DNA of 64,000 nucleotides, taken from Candidatus Binatia bacterium. GTDB taxonomy: Bacteria; Desulfobacterota; Binatia; UBA9968; JAJDTQ01. Of the stretch, positions 24,896 to 33,378 are shown piece by piece. The DNA lies in assembly GCA_963666515.2 (NCBI GenBank), contig OY762897.2:4224001-4288000 (forward strand), written 5' to 3'. The number at the start of each line of letters is the position of its first letter. Within the stretch, counting starts at the first letter, position 1. The position numbers and the translations under genes are program-made. The notes beneath the pieces are model-generated. The model was not told the origin of the DNA. It did no database searches and worked only from the letters and a program-made list of their open reading frames with translations.

Positions 24896-27800
24896 TCAGT
24901 TCCTGGCCTTGCGCATCCGCGCCAGCGTTTCCGCGGCCGGATGACGCGCGGCCCGGAGCGCGGAAGGGAAGTGGTCCTTGCGGCAGATCTCCGATACCTC
25001 GCAATAGCTGCAGTATTTGCCGGGCATGATGAAGAACTCCCCGTCGCGGATGCCCCGAAGGAACCGCGCCACCGCGTCGCGGATGCGTTCGCCGGAACGT
25101 TCCCGCATGGTCGGGGCGGAGAATTCGCAACGGGCCAGGGGGCCGTCGTCCCAGCGCCGCGCGAGGAAGTACAGGGCCGCTTCCACGGCGGTGTCCGGCG
25201 ATGCGCCCCTGGCGCAGGCGTGCTCGGCGGCCAGCAGCACGTAGAGGGGCAACTGCAGCTTCTGCCCGCGCACCGCCGCCAGCACCGGACGCATGTCCTC
25301 CGTCTGAGGGTTCCGGCCGGTCTTGTACTTGTAGTCGACGACCCGGTAGCGGCCGTCCCGGTCGTTGCAGTCCACGCGGTCCAGGCGGCCGTGCACCGGC
25401 AGGTCCCGGAGGTCTTCGGGCCAGTCCGCGTCGAGACGCGCGGTCAGCTCCATTTCGAGGTCCACGGGGCGGAAGCCCGATTGCGTCATCTCGTCCCGGT
25501 CCGCCCGGACCACCTCCTGCAGCATGCCGGCCAGCTCTTCCCGGGCCGTTTCCCAGGCCGCGGGGTAGCCGGTGGGACAGTGCTCTTCGAACGCGGACAG
25601 GACCTCGGCCGCGGCGCCGTCGAGCCACGCGCTCCAGCCGTCCCCCCAGGCGCGGTCGGCGTCCTGGTAGAACCGCTGCAGGATCTCGTGGCAGATCTGC
25701 CCCCATTCCAGGGCCTGGACCGGCTCCGCGGCCTCCGGCCGCTCCAGCCGTTCCAGCCGGAGCACGCGGCGGGCGTAGTACTGGAAGGGGCAGCGGCCGT
25801 AGGCCTCCAGCGTGGTGGGAGAGACGCCGTCCTCCAGGATCTTGTTCCACACCTCTCCGAGGGGACCGGTGACGCCGTCCAGCGCCCCCGGTGCTCCCGC
25901 GCCGTCCTCCAGCGCGCGGACCGCGGCGGCGCTCCTCCGGAAACTCTCCGAGGAGGCGCCGCTCATGCGCACCAGCGGGGTCGGGTCCCGTCCTCCCAGC
26001 GCCTGCCGCACCGCCAGCTCCTCCGGCAGGAGCCACCGGGGGTCGTCGAACGGCGGGACGCGTTGCTTGCCGAGAACGCTCTTGGGAATCGCGCCGGCGT
26101 CCATGCCGCGGCTTTGCCCGCGGGAGCCTGCGTCCACCTCGCGGAGGTACCAGGACGGGGCCAGCGGCCGGCCGGCCGCGTCCGAGCGCTGGTAGCTGCA
26201 ATGGAGGCGGTCGGTGACCGAGCCCGAGAGCAGCGCGAACAGCAGCCTCTCCTCGTCGTAGCCCGCCAGCTTCGAGGAGATCTTGCAGCCCAGGTCGGTC
26301 TCCAGCACGCGCCGCGCGTGGTCCCGCAGGAACGGGTCCTCGCGGATGGTGCGCGGGAACACGCCCTCGTTCATGCCCACGAGGAACAGCGCCCGGAAGG
26401 GGATGCCGCGCGCCGACCCGGCGTCCATGACCTGGACGCCGGCCGCCACCTCACGGGCCGGCGGCGCCGAGGCCCGCTCCAGGCTCCTGCGCAGGGCGGC
26501 GGCGAACGTCTCCAAAGTCACCGTCGGGGTGATCGCCTCCAGGGCCGCCAGCCCGTCGAAGGTCTCGTCGATGGCTTGCGCCACGCCCGCGGCGGCTTCG
26601 TCCGATCCGGGGTTGAGGAAGCGGTCGATGACCGCGCGCCAGCGGGCCGCCAGGTCCGACCACGTGCCCTTTTCCGGCAGCGCGCTCAGTTGCTCGTGCA
26701 GGGCGTTGACGACCTTCAGGAGCGCGTCGACCTGCCACGGCGGGATGCGCAGGGGCCGGCCTTCCTCGTCGTGCATGAGGCTCAGCCGGAGGCCCTTGTC
26801 GAGGTAGCGCTCCAGGCGGCGCCATTCGCCCATGCCGCGGGTGATGCGCGACGCACGGGTGGCGACGTCCCACAGCTCGGGCCTGGGGTCGGCGCCCGGC
26901 CCCAGGACGGCCCGGAAGTTGAAGTCGTGGGACGACACGAGGTCGATGATCCCGGCGCGCGGGTAGTCCCGGACCGGCAGGTCCAGCAGCGTCAGCACGG
27001 CGCGGACCCGGTTGAAGCGACGGAGAGACTCGCGGGCCGGGGTGTGGAACGGGATCCCGTGTTCGGGAAAGATCTCCTGGATCCACGGCAGGTAGGGTTC
27101 CAGCGAGCGCGCCACGACCCCCACGCCATGGAAGTCGAACCCTTCCTCCTCCACCAGCCGGAGCACGCTCTTGGCCACGGTGAGGACCTCGTCCCTGGGC
27201 CCGGCGCAACTGGTGATGTCGCGGCGCGGTGAGGGTGCGGTGACGGGTTTCGCTCCGTCGTGGAGCAGGTCCGCCACTTCGTCCGCGCCGGCGAGGCCAC
27301 GGAGGTAACGGTCGTAGAAGTCCTGGGCGAAAGACCAGTACGGACGGCCTTGGGCCAGGGGATAGAAGAGGGTCAGGGGGTGGTTGCCCGCGACCGCCCG
27401 AAAGAGTTCCATCTGGCTCTGGGTCAGGTCGTAGAAGCCGTAGTAGTATACGCGTTCGAACTGCCCGAGATAGGCCGAGCCCGGCGCGTGCCGCGCCACC
27501 GCCGCGTCGAGGTCCTGGTGGTCCTGCGCCCGCCACTCCGGGAAGCGGCGCCTCACCTCCCGGTACAACTCGAAGAGGTCGCCCAGCGCGTTCCCGTCCC
27601 GGTCGCCGAACAGCCCCTCCCGCAGGGCCTCCAGCGCGGTCTCGGGGTCCACCATGCCGTCCTTGAGGTCGCGCAGGCTTTGCCACAGCGCGGAGCAGGC
27701 GCCGTCGTCCTCCAGCATCCGGGCGAACCTGCCGCGGGCCGGGATCACGCGCTTCAGGGACTCTTCCATGAAGGTCTCGTCCCTCAACGTCGGCGCCGCC

Positions 27801-28036
27801 GGGCCGGCCATCTCGTGGAACAGGTTCAGGCTGAGCTGGAAGAACGTGAGGACGTGGAAATTCAGCAGGGGAAGGCCGTGCTCGTGCGCCAGCAGGACCT
27901 TGACGCGCCGGCGCAGCGTCTCCGAGGGCACTACCAGCAGCAGCGGGGCCAGCGGGTCATGCTCCCGCCGCTGCCGGACCTCTTCCGCCAGCGCGTCTTC
28001 CAGGTAGGGGTGGTAGGGACCCAGGACGATCTTCAT
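24896..28036 (-). CDS. addB: AddB-like inactive helicase with PD-(D/E)XK nuclease and Fe-S cysteines
   Basis: Motifs GMNEGVFP, YGRCPFQYY, GRLDRVD...VDYK and CSYCEVSEIC. Lies upstream of addA. Confidence 0.85.
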   Translation of the reverse strand: MKIVLGPYHPYLEDALAEEVRQRREHDPLAPLLLVVPSETLRRRVKVLLAHEHGLPLLNFHVLTFFQLSLNLFHEMAGPAAPTLRDETFMEESLKRVIPARGRFARMLEDDGACSALWQSLRDLKDGMVDPETALEALREGLFGDRDGNALGDLFELYREVRRRFPEWRAQDHQDLDAAVARHAPGSAYLGQFERVYYYGFYDLTQSQMELFRAVAGNHPLTLFYPLAQGRPYWSFAQDFYDRYLRGLAGADEVADLLHDGAKPVTAPSPRRDITSCAGPRDEVLTVAKSVLRLVEEEGFDFHGVGVVARSLEPYLPWIQEIFPEHGIPFHTPARESLRRFNRVRAVLTLLDLPVRDYPRAGIIDLVSSHDFNFRAVLGPGADPRPELWDVATRASRITRGMGEWRRLERYLDKGLRLSLMHDEEGRPLRIPPWQVDALLKVVNALHEQLSALPEKGTWSDLAARWRAVIDRFLNPGSDEAAAGVAQAIDETFDGLAALEAITPTVTLETFAAALRRSLERASAPPAREVAAGVQVMDAGSARGIPFRALFLVGMNEGVFPRTIREDPFLRDHARRVLETDLGCKISSKLAGYDEERLLFALLSGSVTDRLHCSYQRSDAAGRPLAPSWYLREVDAGSRGQSRGMDAGAIPKSVLGKQRVPPFDDPRWLLPEELAVRQALGGRDPTPLVRMSGASSESFRRSAAAVRALEDGAGAPGALDGVTGPLGEVWNKILEDGVSPTTLEAYGRCPFQYYARRVLRLERLERPEAAEPVQALEWGQICHEILQRFYQDADRAWGDGWSAWLDGAAAEVLSAFEEHCPTGYPAAWETAREELAGMLQEVVRADRDEMTQSGFRPVDLEMELTARLDADWPEDLRDLPVHGRLDRVDCNDRDGRYRVVDYKYKTGRNPQTEDMRPVLAAVRGQKLQLPLYVLLAAEHACARGASPDTAVEAALYFLARRWDDGPLARCEFSAPTMRERSGERIRDAVARFLRGIRDGEFFIMPGKYCSYCEVSEICRKDHFPSALRAARHPAAETLARMRKARN

Positions 28037-28896: not shown

Positions 28897-29334
28897 ATGA
28901 GCAGTCTGGCGAAGGACACGAGGGCGACGATGATTCCGGCGCTTCGGTACAGGGACGCAGCCAGGGCCATCGACTGGCTGTGCGAGGCGTTCGGCTTTGA
29001 GCGGCACCTGGTGGTGCCCGGCGAGGGCGGCGTCATCCTCCACGCCCAGCTCGTGTTCGGCAACGGCATGATGATGCTGGGCTCGGCCCGGGACGACGAC
29101 TACGCGGCGCTTCAGCAGCCCCTGCCGGACCCCGGCGGTCCGGTGTCGCAAAGCACCTACGTCATCGTCACCGACGTGGACGCACACCACGCCAGGGCGG
29201 CGGCCGTGGGCGCGGAGATCGTCATGGCCCCGGAGGATCAGGACTACGGGGGCCGGCTCTACTCCTGCCGGGACCCGGAAGGCAATCTCTGGAACTTCGG
29301 CAGCTACGACCCCTGGGACGACAACGGGCCATAG
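28897..29334 (+). CDS. VOC/glyoxalase family protein
   Basis: Motifs AIDWLCEAFGF, HAQL and YGGRLYSCRDPEGNLWNFG. Confidence 0.9.
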   Translation: MSSLAKDTRATMIPALRYRDAARAIDWLCEAFGFERHLVVPGEGGVILHAQLVFGNGMMMLGSARDDDYAALQQPLPDPGGPVSQSTYVIVTDVDAHHARAAAVGAEIVMAPEDQDYGGRLYSCRDPEGNLWNFGSYDPWDDNGP

Positions 29335-29434
29335 CGGGTAGGGTGTGTCGCGGCACGCTCCCGGTGACCTGCCCGCGCTTTCTTGGAGCGGATTTGCGCA
29401 GGATCACACGGCCGCGTAGACTTCGTCCTGCAAC

Positions 29435-29463
29435 TTGACATACCGCCGGGCGTTTCCTACAAC
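29435..29463 (+). promoter_or_regulatory. Putative sigma70 promoter of ferredoxin gene
   Basis: TTGACA-17 nt-TACAAC, 6 nt before ATG 29470. No RBS. Confidence 0.55.
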
Positions 29464-29469
29464 CCCGCC

Positions 29470-29754
29470 ATGCCTAGAGTCACTTTCATGCCGTTGGGGC
29501 AGAGCTTTGAGGTCGAGGACGGCACCACCATCCTGGTGGCGGCCATACGCAACGGCGTCAAGCTGCGCCACGACTGCACCGAGGCCATCTGCGGCACCGA
29601 CAAGGTGAAGATCCTGTCCGGCGAGAACAACCTGAGCCCCGTGGACGACAACGAGGAGTTGACGCTGTCCATGCTCGAATCGGATGCCGCCGACCGCCTG
29701 GGATGCGTGGCCAAGGTGCTCGGCGACGTGATCGTGGAGATACCTTCCGAGTGA
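29470..29754 (+). CDS. 2Fe-2S ferredoxin (Fer2), variant cluster motif
   Basis: Sequence GTTILVAA, HDCTEAICGTD, RLGC. 94 aa. Confidence 0.8.
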   Translation: MPRVTFMPLGQSFEVEDGTTILVAAIRNGVKLRHDCTEAICGTDKVKILSGENNLSPVDDNEELTLSMLESDAADRLGCVAKVLGDVIVEIPSE

Positions 29755-29759
29755 TGGAT

Positions 29760-30211
29760 GCGGCTGACTAGCAGAGAAACTCGTCCCCGACGACGCTGAT
29801 CTCGGAGGAAGGTCCTACCCTAATGAATCAGACACCCCGGCTCATAAAGAGATGGGGTCGTGTACGGACGAATTTGTGTGCAAAACCCAAATGGGCGGGC
29901 TGAACATCGTGTTGCAGAAGCCGAGACGGGTGCTTCTCAGAAAGCACATGGGCCTAATTCGAGCCATCTTGGAGCGAGTCTCGTGCTGCTCCAGCGTTTG
30001 GTTTGTATTTTCTCTCTTCATGAGATGAGATGTTAAGCATTTCAAGGAGTTAGGGGTCTCACACCGTTGGTTTGTGAGCCCCTTATGCATGCCTCCGTTT
30101 AAGGATCTCCCCGACGTGCCGAAGCTATTAAAATGTGGCGACACAGAGATAGCGATCTGGTATAAGGGGCCATCTGGCGAGATCCGATAGGGTTCCGGAA
30201 GGAATTCAAAA
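29760..30211 (+). ncRNA. Candidate structured non-coding leader (possible AvcI-like RNA antitoxin)
   Basis: About 450 nt without a credible long ORF, directly upstream of the dCTP deaminase. Several stems, e.g. AGGGGTCTCACA 30052-30063 / TGTGAGCCCCT 30073-30083. Positional inference only. Confidence 0.3.
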
Positions 30212-31822
30212 GTGAGTGTTGCGTCAACAAATGTCCGGGCGAAGCAAAGTACTTCAAGACGCTCATCTCAGTCAGCAGTCAACGATTTGGCGGCAAACGA
30301 GTTGATTTTTGCTGTCGTGGGCGCAGCAGGGTCCGGTACAAGCGAGATTGCCAAAGCATTGGAGGCTCTACTCCCACAGCACGGCTACAGTCCTACGATG
30401 CTAAAGGCGCGAGTCGTGATTGAGTCGTCGATGGGCAATGCCCGGCAATCCTATCCCCACGACACAAGACTTGCCAAGAGCGAGGCATTACAGAATGCCG
30501 GAGATTCCCTACGGGAGACGACCGGCGATAACGCTGCCGTCGCTGTAGGACTTGTTAGAGAGATACGCGCCAAACGTGCTCAATATCAGGGAACCGAGTT
30601 GGAGCCCAACAAACCGGTTGAGCCCGACGGTACCAAACGGGCCTATATTCTCGATTCCATCCGCCATCCTGCCGAAGTCGCCCTATTGCGTCGGGTGTAC
30701 CAACAGGCGTTCTGCCTAATAGGTGTTTTCTGCCATGAGGATGAGCGGTTTCACCGTCTAAGCGCTGACAAATATTCGGATGCGAGTGCCAACGACATTC
30801 GTCGTTTCATGCGGCGTGATGAGAATGCTCCAGAAGTACATGGTCAGAAAGTGTCTGATGCCTTTCACCTTTCTGACTATTTCGTGGATAACACGCGTCC
30901 TCGATTCGTTAGGGTTGGCAACGTTGATACGCCAAATCAGGACTGGGACGTTTCGGATCAACTTGGCCGCCTCGTCGATATACTCACCCGCAATCGTCTG
31001 ATCCGCCCAAGGCCAAATGAAACAGGGATGTTCCATGCTCACGGTGCCCGAATGCAGAGCAGTTGCTTGTCGAGGCAGGTCGGTGCAGCGTTGTTAGATG
31101 AACGCGGAGCGGTTGTAGCAACCGGTACAAACGAGGTCCCCCGTGCCGGCGGGGGCGTGTACGGTGGGGTGCTTCTACCAGTTGGGAGTGCTGATCCCGA
31201 ACCGGATCAGGATTTCCGTTGTTTCGTTTACAACAAGTATTGCACGAATACTCGGCAACAAAATGAGATCATTGATGAGCTTCTTGGAGTTATCGGTGAA
31301 ACTACGGGAGGCAAACCACCCGATGAATTGAAGACGCGAATAAAAAGCAGCCGAATTGGACAGATTTTGGAATTCAGCCGTGCCGTTCACGCTGAAATGG
31401 ACGCGTTGTTGTCGGCAGCAAGAAACGGCATCAAAACTGTGGGTACGCGGCTTTTCGTAACGACGTTTCCCTGCCATAGCTGTGCCCGCCATATCGTGAC
31501 CGCTGGGGTCGAAGAAGTGCAGTACATTGAACCGTACCTGAAGAGCCAAGCCATTCCTCTACATGGCGACGCGATTGTGACCGACCCGAAGAGTTGGAAG
31601 CCGCCTTCAATTCCCGAAACTCCACAAGTCTGTCCCAATGTGTTGTTCCGCGCGTTCATTGGGGTGGCGCCGCGGCTCTACCGTCGAGCTTTCATGAAGG
31701 ACGGAGAACTGAAGGACGCCGACACTGGTGACATGAACCTGCCCGTGTCGAGTGACTACACGACATCGCCGACGCTAAGGGTGAGCTATGCGGAGGTCGA
31801 AGCGCGAATCTCGGCATTATAG
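30212..31822 (+). CDS. Anti-phage dCTP/dCMP deaminase (P-loop kinase-like domain + deaminase; Dcd/AvcD type)
   Basis: N-terminal FAVVGAAGSGTS, ILDSIRHPAEV and HGQKVSDAFHLSDYF. Deaminase motifs SSCLSRQVGA, GTNEVP, VHAEMDA and TFPCHSCARHI. GGAAGGA RBS. Lower GC than flanks. Confidence 0.9.
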   Translation: MSVASTNVRAKQSTSRRSSQSAVNDLAANELIFAVVGAAGSGTSEIAKALEALLPQHGYSPTMLKARVVIESSMGNARQSYPHDTRLAKSEALQNAGDSLRETTGDNAAVAVGLVREIRAKRAQYQGTELEPNKPVEPDGTKRAYILDSIRHPAEVALLRRVYQQAFCLIGVFCHEDERFHRLSADKYSDASANDIRRFMRRDENAPEVHGQKVSDAFHLSDYFVDNTRPRFVRVGNVDTPNQDWDVSDQLGRLVDILTRNRLIRPRPNETGMFHAHGARMQSSCLSRQVGAALLDERGAVVATGTNEVPRAGGGVYGGVLLPVGSADPEPDQDFRCFVYNKYCTNTRQQNEIIDELLGVIGETTGGKPPDELKTRIKSSRIGQILEFSRAVHAEMDALLSAARNGIKTVGTRLFVTTFPCHSCARHIVTAGVEEVQYIEPYLKSQAIPLHGDAIVTDPKSWKPPSIPETPQVCPNVLFRAFIGVAPRLYRRAFMKDGELKDADTGDMNLPVSSDYTTSPTLRVSYAEVEARISAL

Positions 31823-31837
31823 CCGCGAGAAATACTG

Positions 31838-32368
31838 ATGAGTGCCAGGGAGCCAACGTCATATCTTCGTCTGGTAGTTCGACGACCACAGGTTGGTTCG
31901 GCTGAATCGCCCGAAGTCGAAAATAGACCGAAGCAACTGTCGTTGTGGTACCCTGAACCTTCGGCAATTTTCTTGCTGAGCGTCGCGTGGATGGGTCGCG
32001 AAGAATTCACGGCGGTCCTCGGAAGATGCCGACCACAGTGGATCATCGACATTCGAGCTGTTCCAAGATTCGATAGAATTGCAGCGTCCCGCAGTGAGGC
32101 GTTCAGACTTTTTGAAAAACTCGGCGCGACATATGTGGACCTTTTCGGGCGGCTAGGTATCAAGTCATATGATTCGGCAGAATCTAATCCAATCAATTGG
32201 GGTGGAGCGGTCGTTGACCTGCTAAGGAACACGGGTCGACAGGGACCGTACGTATTTCTGTTGGACAATGAAAAGCTGACAGCCCGAACACGACTGATTC
32301 TGCCCGGGGTCGTGGGAGAACTTGTAGGGGACGGGCTACGAATTGAGACTATTGCTCATGTAAAGTGA
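31838..32368 (+). CDS. Hypothetical protein, DUF488-like core, linked to the dCTP deaminase
   Basis: 15 bp after the deaminase stop, with the same low-GC composition. EEFTAVL...IIDIRAVP...GATYVDL..LG resembles the DUF488 pattern. Confidence 0.6.
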   Translation: MSAREPTSYLRLVVRRPQVGSAESPEVENRPKQLSLWYPEPSAIFLLSVAWMGREEFTAVLGRCRPQWIIDIRAVPRFDRIAASRSEAFRLFEKLGATYVDLFGRLGIKSYDSAESNPINWGGAVVDLLRNTGRQGPYVFLLDNEKLTARTRLILPGVVGELVGDGLRIETIAHVK

Positions 32369-32523
32369 GTGGTGGAGGGTATTTGAAGATGCCGCGAGAC
32401 GGAATCATGGCGTATTCGCCAAGTGTCGCGACTTGCACTCTTTTCCACACTCTAGCAGTGTGAGGGGTGGCCTTTTAGCGAGATGGTTGTGAATCGTTAT
32501 AGAGGTATAAGCTGGAGGCCCCA

Positions 32524-33378
32524 ATGAGTAGAGTCAAGGAAGTGCTCGACCGGCAGGGAACCCTGGTCATGCCGGGAGTGTACGACGCCCTGAGCGCCCG
32601 CATCGCCGAGCGCGCGGGCTTCGACGTCATATTCACCACCGGCTACGGCATCTCGGCGACTATGCTGGGCGAGCCGGATTTCGGCATCCTCACGCAGACC
32701 GAGATGCTGAGCACCATCTACCGCATCTGCGGCGCGGTGCCGACGCCGGTCATCGTGGACTCGGACACCGGCTACGGCAACGCGGTGAACGTGGTCCGCA
32801 CCGTCAACGAGCTGATGCGGGCCGGGGCCGCGGGCATGTTCCTGGAGGACCAGGTGTGGCCCAAGCGCTGCGGGCACATGCGGGGCAAGCAGGTGGTGCC
32901 GCTGGACGAGTATCTCAAGAAGCTCAACGCCGCGGTGGCGGCGAAGGACGGCGGCGATCTCTTCATCGTGGCCCGCACCGACGCGCGCCAGGCCTTGGGC
33001 CTCGACGAGGCCATCCGGCGCGGCATCGCCTTCAAGGAGAACGGCGCCGACGCCGTGTTCATCGAAGCGCCGGAAAGCCGCGACGAGATGCGGGAGATCG
33101 CCCGCAACGTGCCGGGGCCGCTGGTGGCCAACATGATCGAGCGCGGCGTCACCCCGCTGATGACGCCGGCGGAGTTGGGAGAGCTGGGTTTCGCGTTGAT
33201 CGTGTGGCCGGTGGGTCCGCTCTACTCAGCGGCCCAGGCGCTCAAGAACTACTACGCCAACCTCCGGGAGATGGGCACCGCGGAGGCGCTCATGGACCGG
33301 CTGCTGCCGTTCGACGAATTCCACCAGATCGTGGGGCTGGAGGAGAAGTACGCTCTGGACGAGAAGTACCGGACGTGA
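32524..33378 (+). CDS. Isocitrate lyase/PEP mutase family enzyme (methylisocitrate lyase-like)
   Basis: Motifs PGVYDALSA, VDSDTGYG, EDQVWPKRCGH and ARTDA. Confidence 0.9.
   Translation: MSRVKEVLDRQGTLVMPGVYDALSARIAERAGFDVIFTTGYGISATMLGEPDFGILTQTEMLSTIYRICGAVPTPVIVDSDTGYGNAVNVVRTVNELMRAGAAGMFLEDQVWPKRCGHMRGKQVVPLDEYLKKLNAAVAAKDGGDLFIVARTDARQALGLDEAIRRGIAFKENGADAVFIEAPESRDEMREIARNVPGPLVANMIERGVTPLMTPAELGELGFALIVWPVGPLYSAAQALKNYYANLREMGTAEALMDRLLPFDEFHQIVGLEEKYALDEKYRT

Follow-up and report, generated by a model that had tools for sequence, protein, structure and literature searches.

A two-gene dCTP deaminase locus whose partner protein carries a clamp-binding-like motif in a predicted disordered arm and a core distantly related to DUF488

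What does the small protein encoded directly behind an anti-phage dCTP deaminase contribute to that system, and to which family does it belong? The question is raised by a low-GC island (29800..32500, defined by GC profile with no strand assigned) in the window, the whole stretch of 64,000 nucleotides analysed here. GC content is 0.50-0.57 across approximately 29.8-32.5 kb, compared with 0.66-0.70 in the flanks, and the content of the island is two co-directional genes, a dCTP deaminase (30212..31822, + strand, 536 aa) followed by its partner (31838..32368, + strand, 176 aa, ATG start), with a gap of 16 nt from the deaminase stop codon to the partner start. The initial annotation, made from the nucleotide sequence and its translations, read the partner as a catalytically dead DUF488 fold with a clamp-binding-like motif, possibly an adaptor between the deaminase and the replisome or a phage trigger, or else a protein antitoxin.

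The identity of the first gene is established by several resources. Its product matches the PADLOC dCTPase model (E 6.5e-148) and Pfam dCMP_cyt_deam_1 (E 5e-14), scores 422.4 bits against NCBIfam NF041025, 'anti-phage dCTP deaminase' (cut-off 400, thus passing at the equivalog level), and displays the zinc motifs HAE and PCHSC in its translation. Its architecture, an N-terminal P-loop kinase-like domain and a C-terminal zinc deaminase domain, is also that of the characterised anti-phage dCTP deaminase, a single 576-aa protein (bioRxiv 10.1101/2021.04.26.441389), whereas the AvcD system combines a deaminase with an RNA antitoxin, AvcI (PMC10511110). The present locus differs from these characterised systems in that a conserved protein-coding partner follows the deaminase; full-text searches of open papers, without supplements, found no description of a protein partner of a dCTP deaminase.

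The partner reading frame is placed as in the initial annotation, and the stretches quoted there (EEFTAVL, RPQWIIDIRAVPRF, GATYVDLFGRLG, VFLLDNEKLTAR, YLRLVV and KQLSLW) all occur in its product. A word-indexed search found 17 homologues of 176-199 aa with 47-79% identity, colinear with the window protein from Met1 to the end, and a profile search of 1.84 billion representatives placed 454 clusters in the family at E<=1e-3, 229 of them at E<=1e-10 and 40 at E<=1e-30; with these end-to-end homologues and profile-search clusters, the open reading frame is a real gene. The family is rare and patchy, being carried by four of 401 sampled genomes of the Alphaproteobacteria, the class that holds one of the homologous loci (L002). 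The partner has no match at E<=1 in Pfam, PADLOC, NCBIfam or PHROGs and no tblastn match in the plasmid and phage collections searched, and a search of PDB sequences with the family profile returned two rows only, both at chance level (E 0.18 and 1.9). A wide family alignment (A4) was assembled from the window protein and 146 of 165 proteins of length 150-215, giving 147 diverse sequences with a mean column identity of 21%, among which D71, R73, P76, D79, R85, Y99, D101 and D143 are nearly invariant; by its conservation this set of residues looks like a preserved pocket.

Linkage of the two genes is strong when the partner is taken as the point of departure. The deaminase lies directly upstream in all eight genome loci, two of which are partial (incomplete matches to both deaminase and partner in L007, a degraded copy in L008), in both distant alphaproteobacterial matches, and in 14 of 15 metagenome loci, which were found with a narrow alignment (A1) that reaches close relatives only; the exception (L088) is a weak match, 31% identical over 77 residues. 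Taken from the side of the deaminase, the association is partial. NF041025 is matched at E<=1e-20 in 21 of the 401 alphaproteobacterial genomes, in 16 of them above the cut-off, and when the six-frame open reading frames of all 22 loci were searched with a hidden Markov model of A4, a partner-family member (E 4e-66 to 1e-6) was immediately downstream in six of the 17 deaminase loci examined (the 16 above the cut-off and one at 386.8 bits); since only these six have a partner, the deaminase in general does not need one. Of the 454 family clusters, these neighbourhood counts cover the close relatives and the 401-genome sample. Going by synteny, the partner may contact the deaminase. Two further loci contain open reading frames of 76-77 aa with QFDLNL or QLSIAF, which were picked by eye and constitute a lead only.

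The most distinctive part of the partner is its N-terminal arm (residues 1-38; 31838..31951, + strand), which is predicted to be disordered, as had been proposed, with AF2 pLDDT below 50 at residues 1-4 and 9-38. Two motifs lie within it: YLRLV (residues 9-13; 31862..31876, + strand), recognised by its invariance and by the family consensus [HY]L[RK]L[VI], and the clamp-binding-like hexapeptide QLSLWY (residues 33-38; 31934..31951, + strand), recognised by conservation and by co-folding, of which QLSLW (Q33-W37) falls by direct reading exactly at the previously assigned positions 31934-31948. All 18 sequences compared (the window protein and its close homologues) have L10, R11, L12, Q33 and L34 without exception. 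Across the wide family, [HY]L[RK]L[VI] recurs near residue 9, always within about 15 residues of the N-terminus in stand-alone and fused proteins alike, and is followed about 20 residues later by Q-L-x-[LF]-P-[YFL] or Q-x-x-L-F. A clamp-binding-type pattern is present in 112 of the 142 representatives that have a full arm (Qxx[LMIF]F in 34, Q[LIVM]x[LFIM]x[LFYIM] in 80), 28-40 residues (median 36) ahead of the D-x-R anchor; the corresponding counts are 6.4 on average in shuffled arms and 7 in the core region, of the same 142, a conserved motif being bound to exceed its shuffles by construction so that the forms that occur are the informative point. The commonest are QLSFPY, QLAFPY, QLSLPF, QLALPY, QLSLF, QLPLF, QLTLF and QLSLPL. 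The remaining 30 representatives are without the pattern and include near misses (QLGLPH, QFSLPL) and one branch with HLRLV only. Of the six alphaproteobacterial partners downstream of a deaminase, four are divergent and have partly lost HLRLV; three of these carry QLDLF, QLELF and QTHMF, and the fourth keeps HLRLV together with a weak QGELEL.

Position 5 of the motif is often Pro or Trp (Trp in the window protein), and Pro at this position fits the hexapeptide type represented by Hda. The published consensus for binding to the beta clamp is QL(D/S)LF, usually located in flexible terminal regions (PMC6511837), and the N-terminal hexapeptide of Hda, 6-QLSLPL-11, is described as placing Leu7, Leu9, Pro10 and Leu11 in the cleft (PMC5397184). 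The family alternates between a pentapeptide form, QxxLF, and a hexapeptide form, QLxLP[LFY], which, because they match the QL(D/S)LF consensus and the Hda hexapeptide, amounts to toggling between exactly two canonical forms. The earlier expectation that a QLxL-type motif would be conserved in homologues was thus borne out, and QLSLW is supported in silico as a conserved clamp-binding-like motif in a predicted disordered arm.

Docking of this arm to the sliding clamp is likewise predicted by a complex model. Arm residues 1-42, with the A4 alignment, were co-folded with two chains of the DnaN encoded in the same genome (368 aa), for which an alignment of 29 sequences from the phylum was used, one sequence (L068) having been left out owing to its badly placed N-terminus. 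The arm-DnaN ipSAE was 0.71, 0.72 and 0.68, compared with 0.00 in each of three controls, two in which an unrelated protein took the place of the partner and one in which DnaN was replaced. Of solved complexes, 58 of 80 attain the mark applied to ipSAE, as do 2 of 110 mismatched pairs; these counts calibrate the present case only roughly because it employs its own alignments and a two-copy chain. Contact agreement in the co-fold runs was at least 49%, and partner pLDDT was at least 45 (45-46). The predicted interface joins partner residues 30-38 to DnaN residues 172, 174-177, 243, 248, 276, 278-279, 281, 321, 346, 348, 362 and 364-368, leaving the HLRLV/YLRLV motif outside. DnaN residues 3-368 align to residues 3-366 of E. 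coli beta, and in the E. coli structures the interface positions form the peptide-binding cleft and the C-terminal tail. The PDB contains 51 clamp sequences at E<=1e-30, and the co-fold may have passed from the model's memory of many solved clamp-peptide complexes; since such memory is possible, the co-fold shows that the motif reads as clamp-binding rather than showing binding itself.

The arm and domain are also found in proteins that lack any deaminase. They form the N-terminus of five TIR-APAZ proteins of approximately 650 aa (P0100, P0109, P0130, P0158 and P0159) that match PADLOC Aga_TIR-PNTD1-PNTD2 (E 1e-124 to 1e-142), and are N-terminal also in a 1139-aa TIR-APAZ-pAgo protein (P0163) and in an 878-aa GNAT-PIN protein (P0070). 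Nine more TIR-bearing clusters were found with the N-terminal 170 residues of P0109. Of 18 fused proteins, 16 keep QxxLF or the hexapeptide form, mostly as W-Q-x-T-L-F; of the other two, one breaks off right at the motif. A separate search for longer proteins with A4 returned none, which the tool itself rates as weak evidence. Since fusions of this arm and domain occur with TIR-APAZ/pAgo and GNAT-PIN proteins, the arm is not specific to the deaminase.

The core of the partner (residues 43-172; 31964..32353, + strand) is an alpha/beta domain whose DUF488 likeness is indicated by the AF2 model, hhalign and structural neighbours. The model has pLDDT 77 and pTM 0.71 overall, with the core confident from residue 40 (pLDDT 77-94 in ten-residue blocks). 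For comparison, 19 DUF488 proteins (A2) were aligned from 32 DUF488 matches in relatives' genomes, leaving out two YeaO-type proteins (L014 and L018) and the remaining matches. Against A2, hhalign gave E 0.0013 and probability 18.7 with the narrow partner profile, and E 1.1e-5 and probability 81.6 over 64 columns with the wide one (A4), pairing partner residues 44-108 with DUF488 residues 5-69; the match covers the N-terminal half only, where the two have in common a strand, a helix, D-[VI]-R-x-x-P...S-R, a helix, a Y-strand and LG. In ESM-Atlas, the nearest cluster is probably the partner's own (0.95, 436 members), and the next are automatically named DUF488 clusters, at 0.94 with members that have no Pfam family in common and at 0.81 with members that all (100%) carry PF04343. 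PDB sequences searched with the DUF488 profile yielded no structure of that family, and models were compared instead. In the partner model and in that of a DUF488 protein (pLDDT 94.5), the order of elements is the same, beta1-alpha1-beta2-alpha2-beta3-(helices)-beta4-alpha-beta5; the top three PDB neighbours by exhaustive VIA-align are identical (2cbf, 1v9a and 8xj3), and 28 of the 50 structural neighbours listed are common to both by manual count, the best Z being 8.2-8.9, which may reflect a common arrangement, so that the support from the models is indirect. The DUF488 likeness proposed for the core is thus supported for its N-terminal half by hhalign, ESM-Atlas, element order and common structural neighbours. 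With Foldseek against the PDB, no match of the partner model reached E<=1e-3, and the best, SRP GTPases and methyltransferases, were at about 1e-2. Foldseek against the BFVD viral models likewise gave no match at E<=1e-3, and no row listed was named DUF488. The window protein has no match to Pfam DUF488 (PF04343) at E<=1, and two of the 147 family members match it (best E 0.0026). By profile, then, the partner core is a distant, Cys-less relative of DUF488 that lies outside the formal Pfam family.

The second half of the core is where the two families part. The DUF488 alignment has as invariants C119, E121, C127-H128-R129 and H145, and in the partner family neither Cys nor His is conserved at any position, the C-x-E...CHR...H series being without counterpart. 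Loss of C-x-E...CHR, one of the claims of the initial annotation, is therefore seen in both the family and the DUF488 alignments; the accompanying statement that the protein has no Cys or His was too broad, as C64 and H174 exist, but these two residues are unconserved and lie away from the DUF488 C-x-E...CHR sites. After beta-strand 4, the partner has D143, which is nearly invariant in the wide family, and E145, so that D143-N144-E145 (32264..32272, + strand) appears in place of the DUF488 C-x-E in the family and DUF488 alignments, a positional equivalence that was judged by eye and lies outside the hhalign match. Further differences are that DUF488 has two helices between strands 3 and 4 and the partner one, and that the partner core is preceded by some 40 disordered residues with their two motifs, while in the first DUF488 protein the aligned domain already starts near residue 5. 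DUF488 includes YeaO of E. coli, which is given as a protein without literature, and the domain is given as occurring near prophages and defence islands, in a preprint (bioRxiv 10.1101/2024.05.24.595836). No activity of DUF488 itself was reported in the literature searched, and D71, R73, R85, D101 and D143 are kept in the partner family; for these reasons, whether the partner is 'catalytically dead', as first described, cannot be judged.

The explanation to which we give about an even chance sees in the partner a clamp-targeting subunit, adaptor or sensor, of a two-gene dCTP deaminase system. It would be an accessory subunit composed of a divergent DUF488-like domain and a disordered arm, of which the motif Q-L-x-[LF]-x-[YFL]/QxxLF is predicted to bind the beta sliding clamp as do the motifs of Hda and polymerases. 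The arm would tether the partner to DnaN, and through the partner the deaminase would be tethered as well; the core, to judge from gene linkage and the apparently conserved pocket, may contact the deaminase or a ligand. Deamination of dCTP would thereby be coupled to where DNA is replicated or to the state of replication: the system could be recruited to clamps loaded on replicating phage DNA, or it could sense whether the clamp cleft is occupied, and control might run in the direction of recruitment and activation or of guard-type inhibition. Given their fusion to TIR-APAZ/short-pAgo and GNAT-PIN effectors, the arm and domain may be a portable targeting or sensing module rather than a deaminase-specific inhibitor. 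A bolder generalisation, which we offer tentatively and on which the odds are somewhat unfavourable, is that clamp-motif arm and Cys-less DUF488-like domain constitute a portable 'replisome plug' that links unrelated immune effectors to the beta clamp, with the loading of clamps on replicating foreign DNA, or the occupancy of their cleft, serving as the signal or the address.

Three other explanations were weighed against the adaptor or sensor subunit, and the four are not all mutually exclusive. In the first, the partner acts on the deaminase as an antitoxin or inhibitor, doing as a protein what AvcI does as an RNA, and its arm binds the deaminase instead of the clamp; phage-induced shut-off or degradation of a labile partner would then free the deaminase. 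The tight gene linkage and operon-like spacing are what such a pair would be expected to have, as is the position of HLRLV, which presumably would suit an N-terminal degron. No Rfam RNA was matched at E<=1 in 29000-33000, where an AvcI-like structured RNA with poorly conserved sequence could escape, and the upstream 400 nt are conserved by blastn between close relatives only (3 pairs among 15 loci). A precedent exists in AvcID, in which deaminases are kept inactive by a labile inhibitor (PMC10511110). The covalent fusions to TIR-APAZ/pAgo and GNAT-PIN proteins, which have no deaminase, are nevertheless a poor fit with a freely degraded, deaminase-specific antitoxin, and the contrast between the arm-DnaN co-fold and its controls (0.71 against 0.00) likewise speaks against it; we consider a deaminase antitoxin unlikely, and note that the two readings are compatible, a clamp-bound inhibitor being possible.

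It is also improbable, in our estimation, that the likeness to clamp motifs is coincidental, the arm being meant for some other ligand (a phage protein, nucleic acid, itself in self-association, or its own effector) and the co-fold being an artefact of the model's memory, as would arise with any Q-L-x-L-aromatic peptide. Such an artefact would agree with the caveat of the tool that memory can let a pair pass when it resembles solved complexes and with a partner pLDDT of just 45-46 in the complex, and a different ligand would agree with the 30 of 142 members without the pattern and with the placement of the second invariant motif, HLRLV, outside the predicted clamp interface. What coincidence would leave unaccounted for is the alternation between exactly two canonical forms around an invariant Gln anchor in a disordered terminal arm, the survival of the motif in divergent partners and in fusions, and the score of 0.00 when the partner was kept and DnaN replaced. 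Least probable of all, and in our view very doubtful, is that the partner itself has catalytic or ligand-binding activity, in a pocket of DUF488 type where Asp/Glu have taken over from Cys/His, and functions as a second effector on nucleotides or nucleic acid or as a small-molecule sensor. The eight residues nearly invariant in 147 sequences, the D-x-R...P...SR block common to partner and DUF488, and the presence of PTP-fold phosphatases and tetrapyrrole methylase N-domains (Z 5-9) among the neighbours of both models speak in its favour; against it, Z values below about 8 may reflect common arrangement only, DUF488 itself has no reported activity in the literature searched, and the arm would be left unexplained.

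The partner shares with clamp-motif proteins such as Hda, polymerases and MutL a short Gln-anchored hydrophobic motif in a flexible terminal region; some family members have the exact Hda hexapeptide QLSLPL, and the docking site, as predicted, is the DnaN cleft with the C-terminal tail. It differs from them in not being a replication or repair protein, in carrying the motif some 33 residues into the chain, behind another conserved motif, and, in the window protein, in having Trp at position 5 (QLSLWY). From the TIR-APAZ/short pAgo systems (SPARTA-type), in which relatives of the module constitute the N-terminal approximately 170 residues (PADLOC Aga_TIR-PNTD1-PNTD2, E 1e-110 to 1e-142) and one relative is fused to pAgo, the locus differs in that the window has no TIR, APAZ or pAgo gene and that the module forms a protein of its own, with a deaminase as its pair. 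Neither a clamp-binding motif in such a defence system nor this TIR-APAZ N-terminal module was found in the open full-text papers searched. What the characterised dCTP deaminase defences sense is only partly understood; a conserved clamp-motif partner, if the reading is true, would link immunity by nucleotide depletion directly with the machinery of replication, its fusions to TIR-APAZ/short-pAgo would give an idea of how unrelated defence systems could find or sense replicating invader DNA, and one branch of the DUF488 superfamily, widespread yet uncharacterised, would for the first time become accessible to functional study.

Around the island, a repeat search found no flanking repeats, and a scan for promoters and terminators found nothing above shuffled sequence. 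The partner is present in 2 of 28 genomes of the window's genus, and in the single close relative the island occupies the identical chromosomal site, between flanks that are collinear at approximately 80% identity.

Elsewhere in the genome to which the window belongs, locus L009 (G000:C1:4421550-4421891, beyond the window) codes for a canonical DUF488 protein, which keeps the full C-x-E...CHR motif; therefore the divergent DUF488-like partner of the dCTP deaminase is an extra, paralogue-like member and not the sole DUF488-type gene of its genome. The closest solved folds to the AF2 models are the same for DUF488 and the partner, namely PTP-fold phosphatases and the N-domains of tetrapyrrole methylases (Z about 6-9), and these structural neighbours of the models may hint at the chemistry of DUF488. 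In another genome (G075) the partner family is represented a second time, by a weaker match with an in-frame TAA (G075:C374:10810-11274), which may be a decaying copy.

Besides the clamp-binding-like motif, the N-terminal arm of the partner carries a second invariant motif, [HY]L[RK]L[VI] (31862-31876 in the window), which is present throughout the family and always lies no more than about 15 residues from the N-terminus. In the co-fold model it falls outside the predicted interface with the beta sliding clamp (DnaN), and it could be a degron or a contact with the effector. The partner-type module is also found in an 878-aa protein (P0070), where a PIN domain and a GNAT acetyltransferase are fused to it, with a weak match in PADLOC (PDC-M11A, E 5.7e-7); GNAT-PIN is a third type of effector that carries the same N-terminal module.

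Two dCTP deaminase loci of the alphaproteobacterial sample, L091 and L100, lack a DUF488-like partner, and in each the deaminase gene is directly followed by an ORF of 76-77 aa. Each of these short ORFs contains a hexapeptide resembling the clamp motif (QFDLNL and QLSIAF, picked by eye), and their products might be minimal partners. Upstream of the low-GC island, the window contains an ORF of 1046 aa (24896-28036, minus strand) whose C-terminal segment is rich in Cys and which, judged by eye, resembles a helicase-nuclease subunit.
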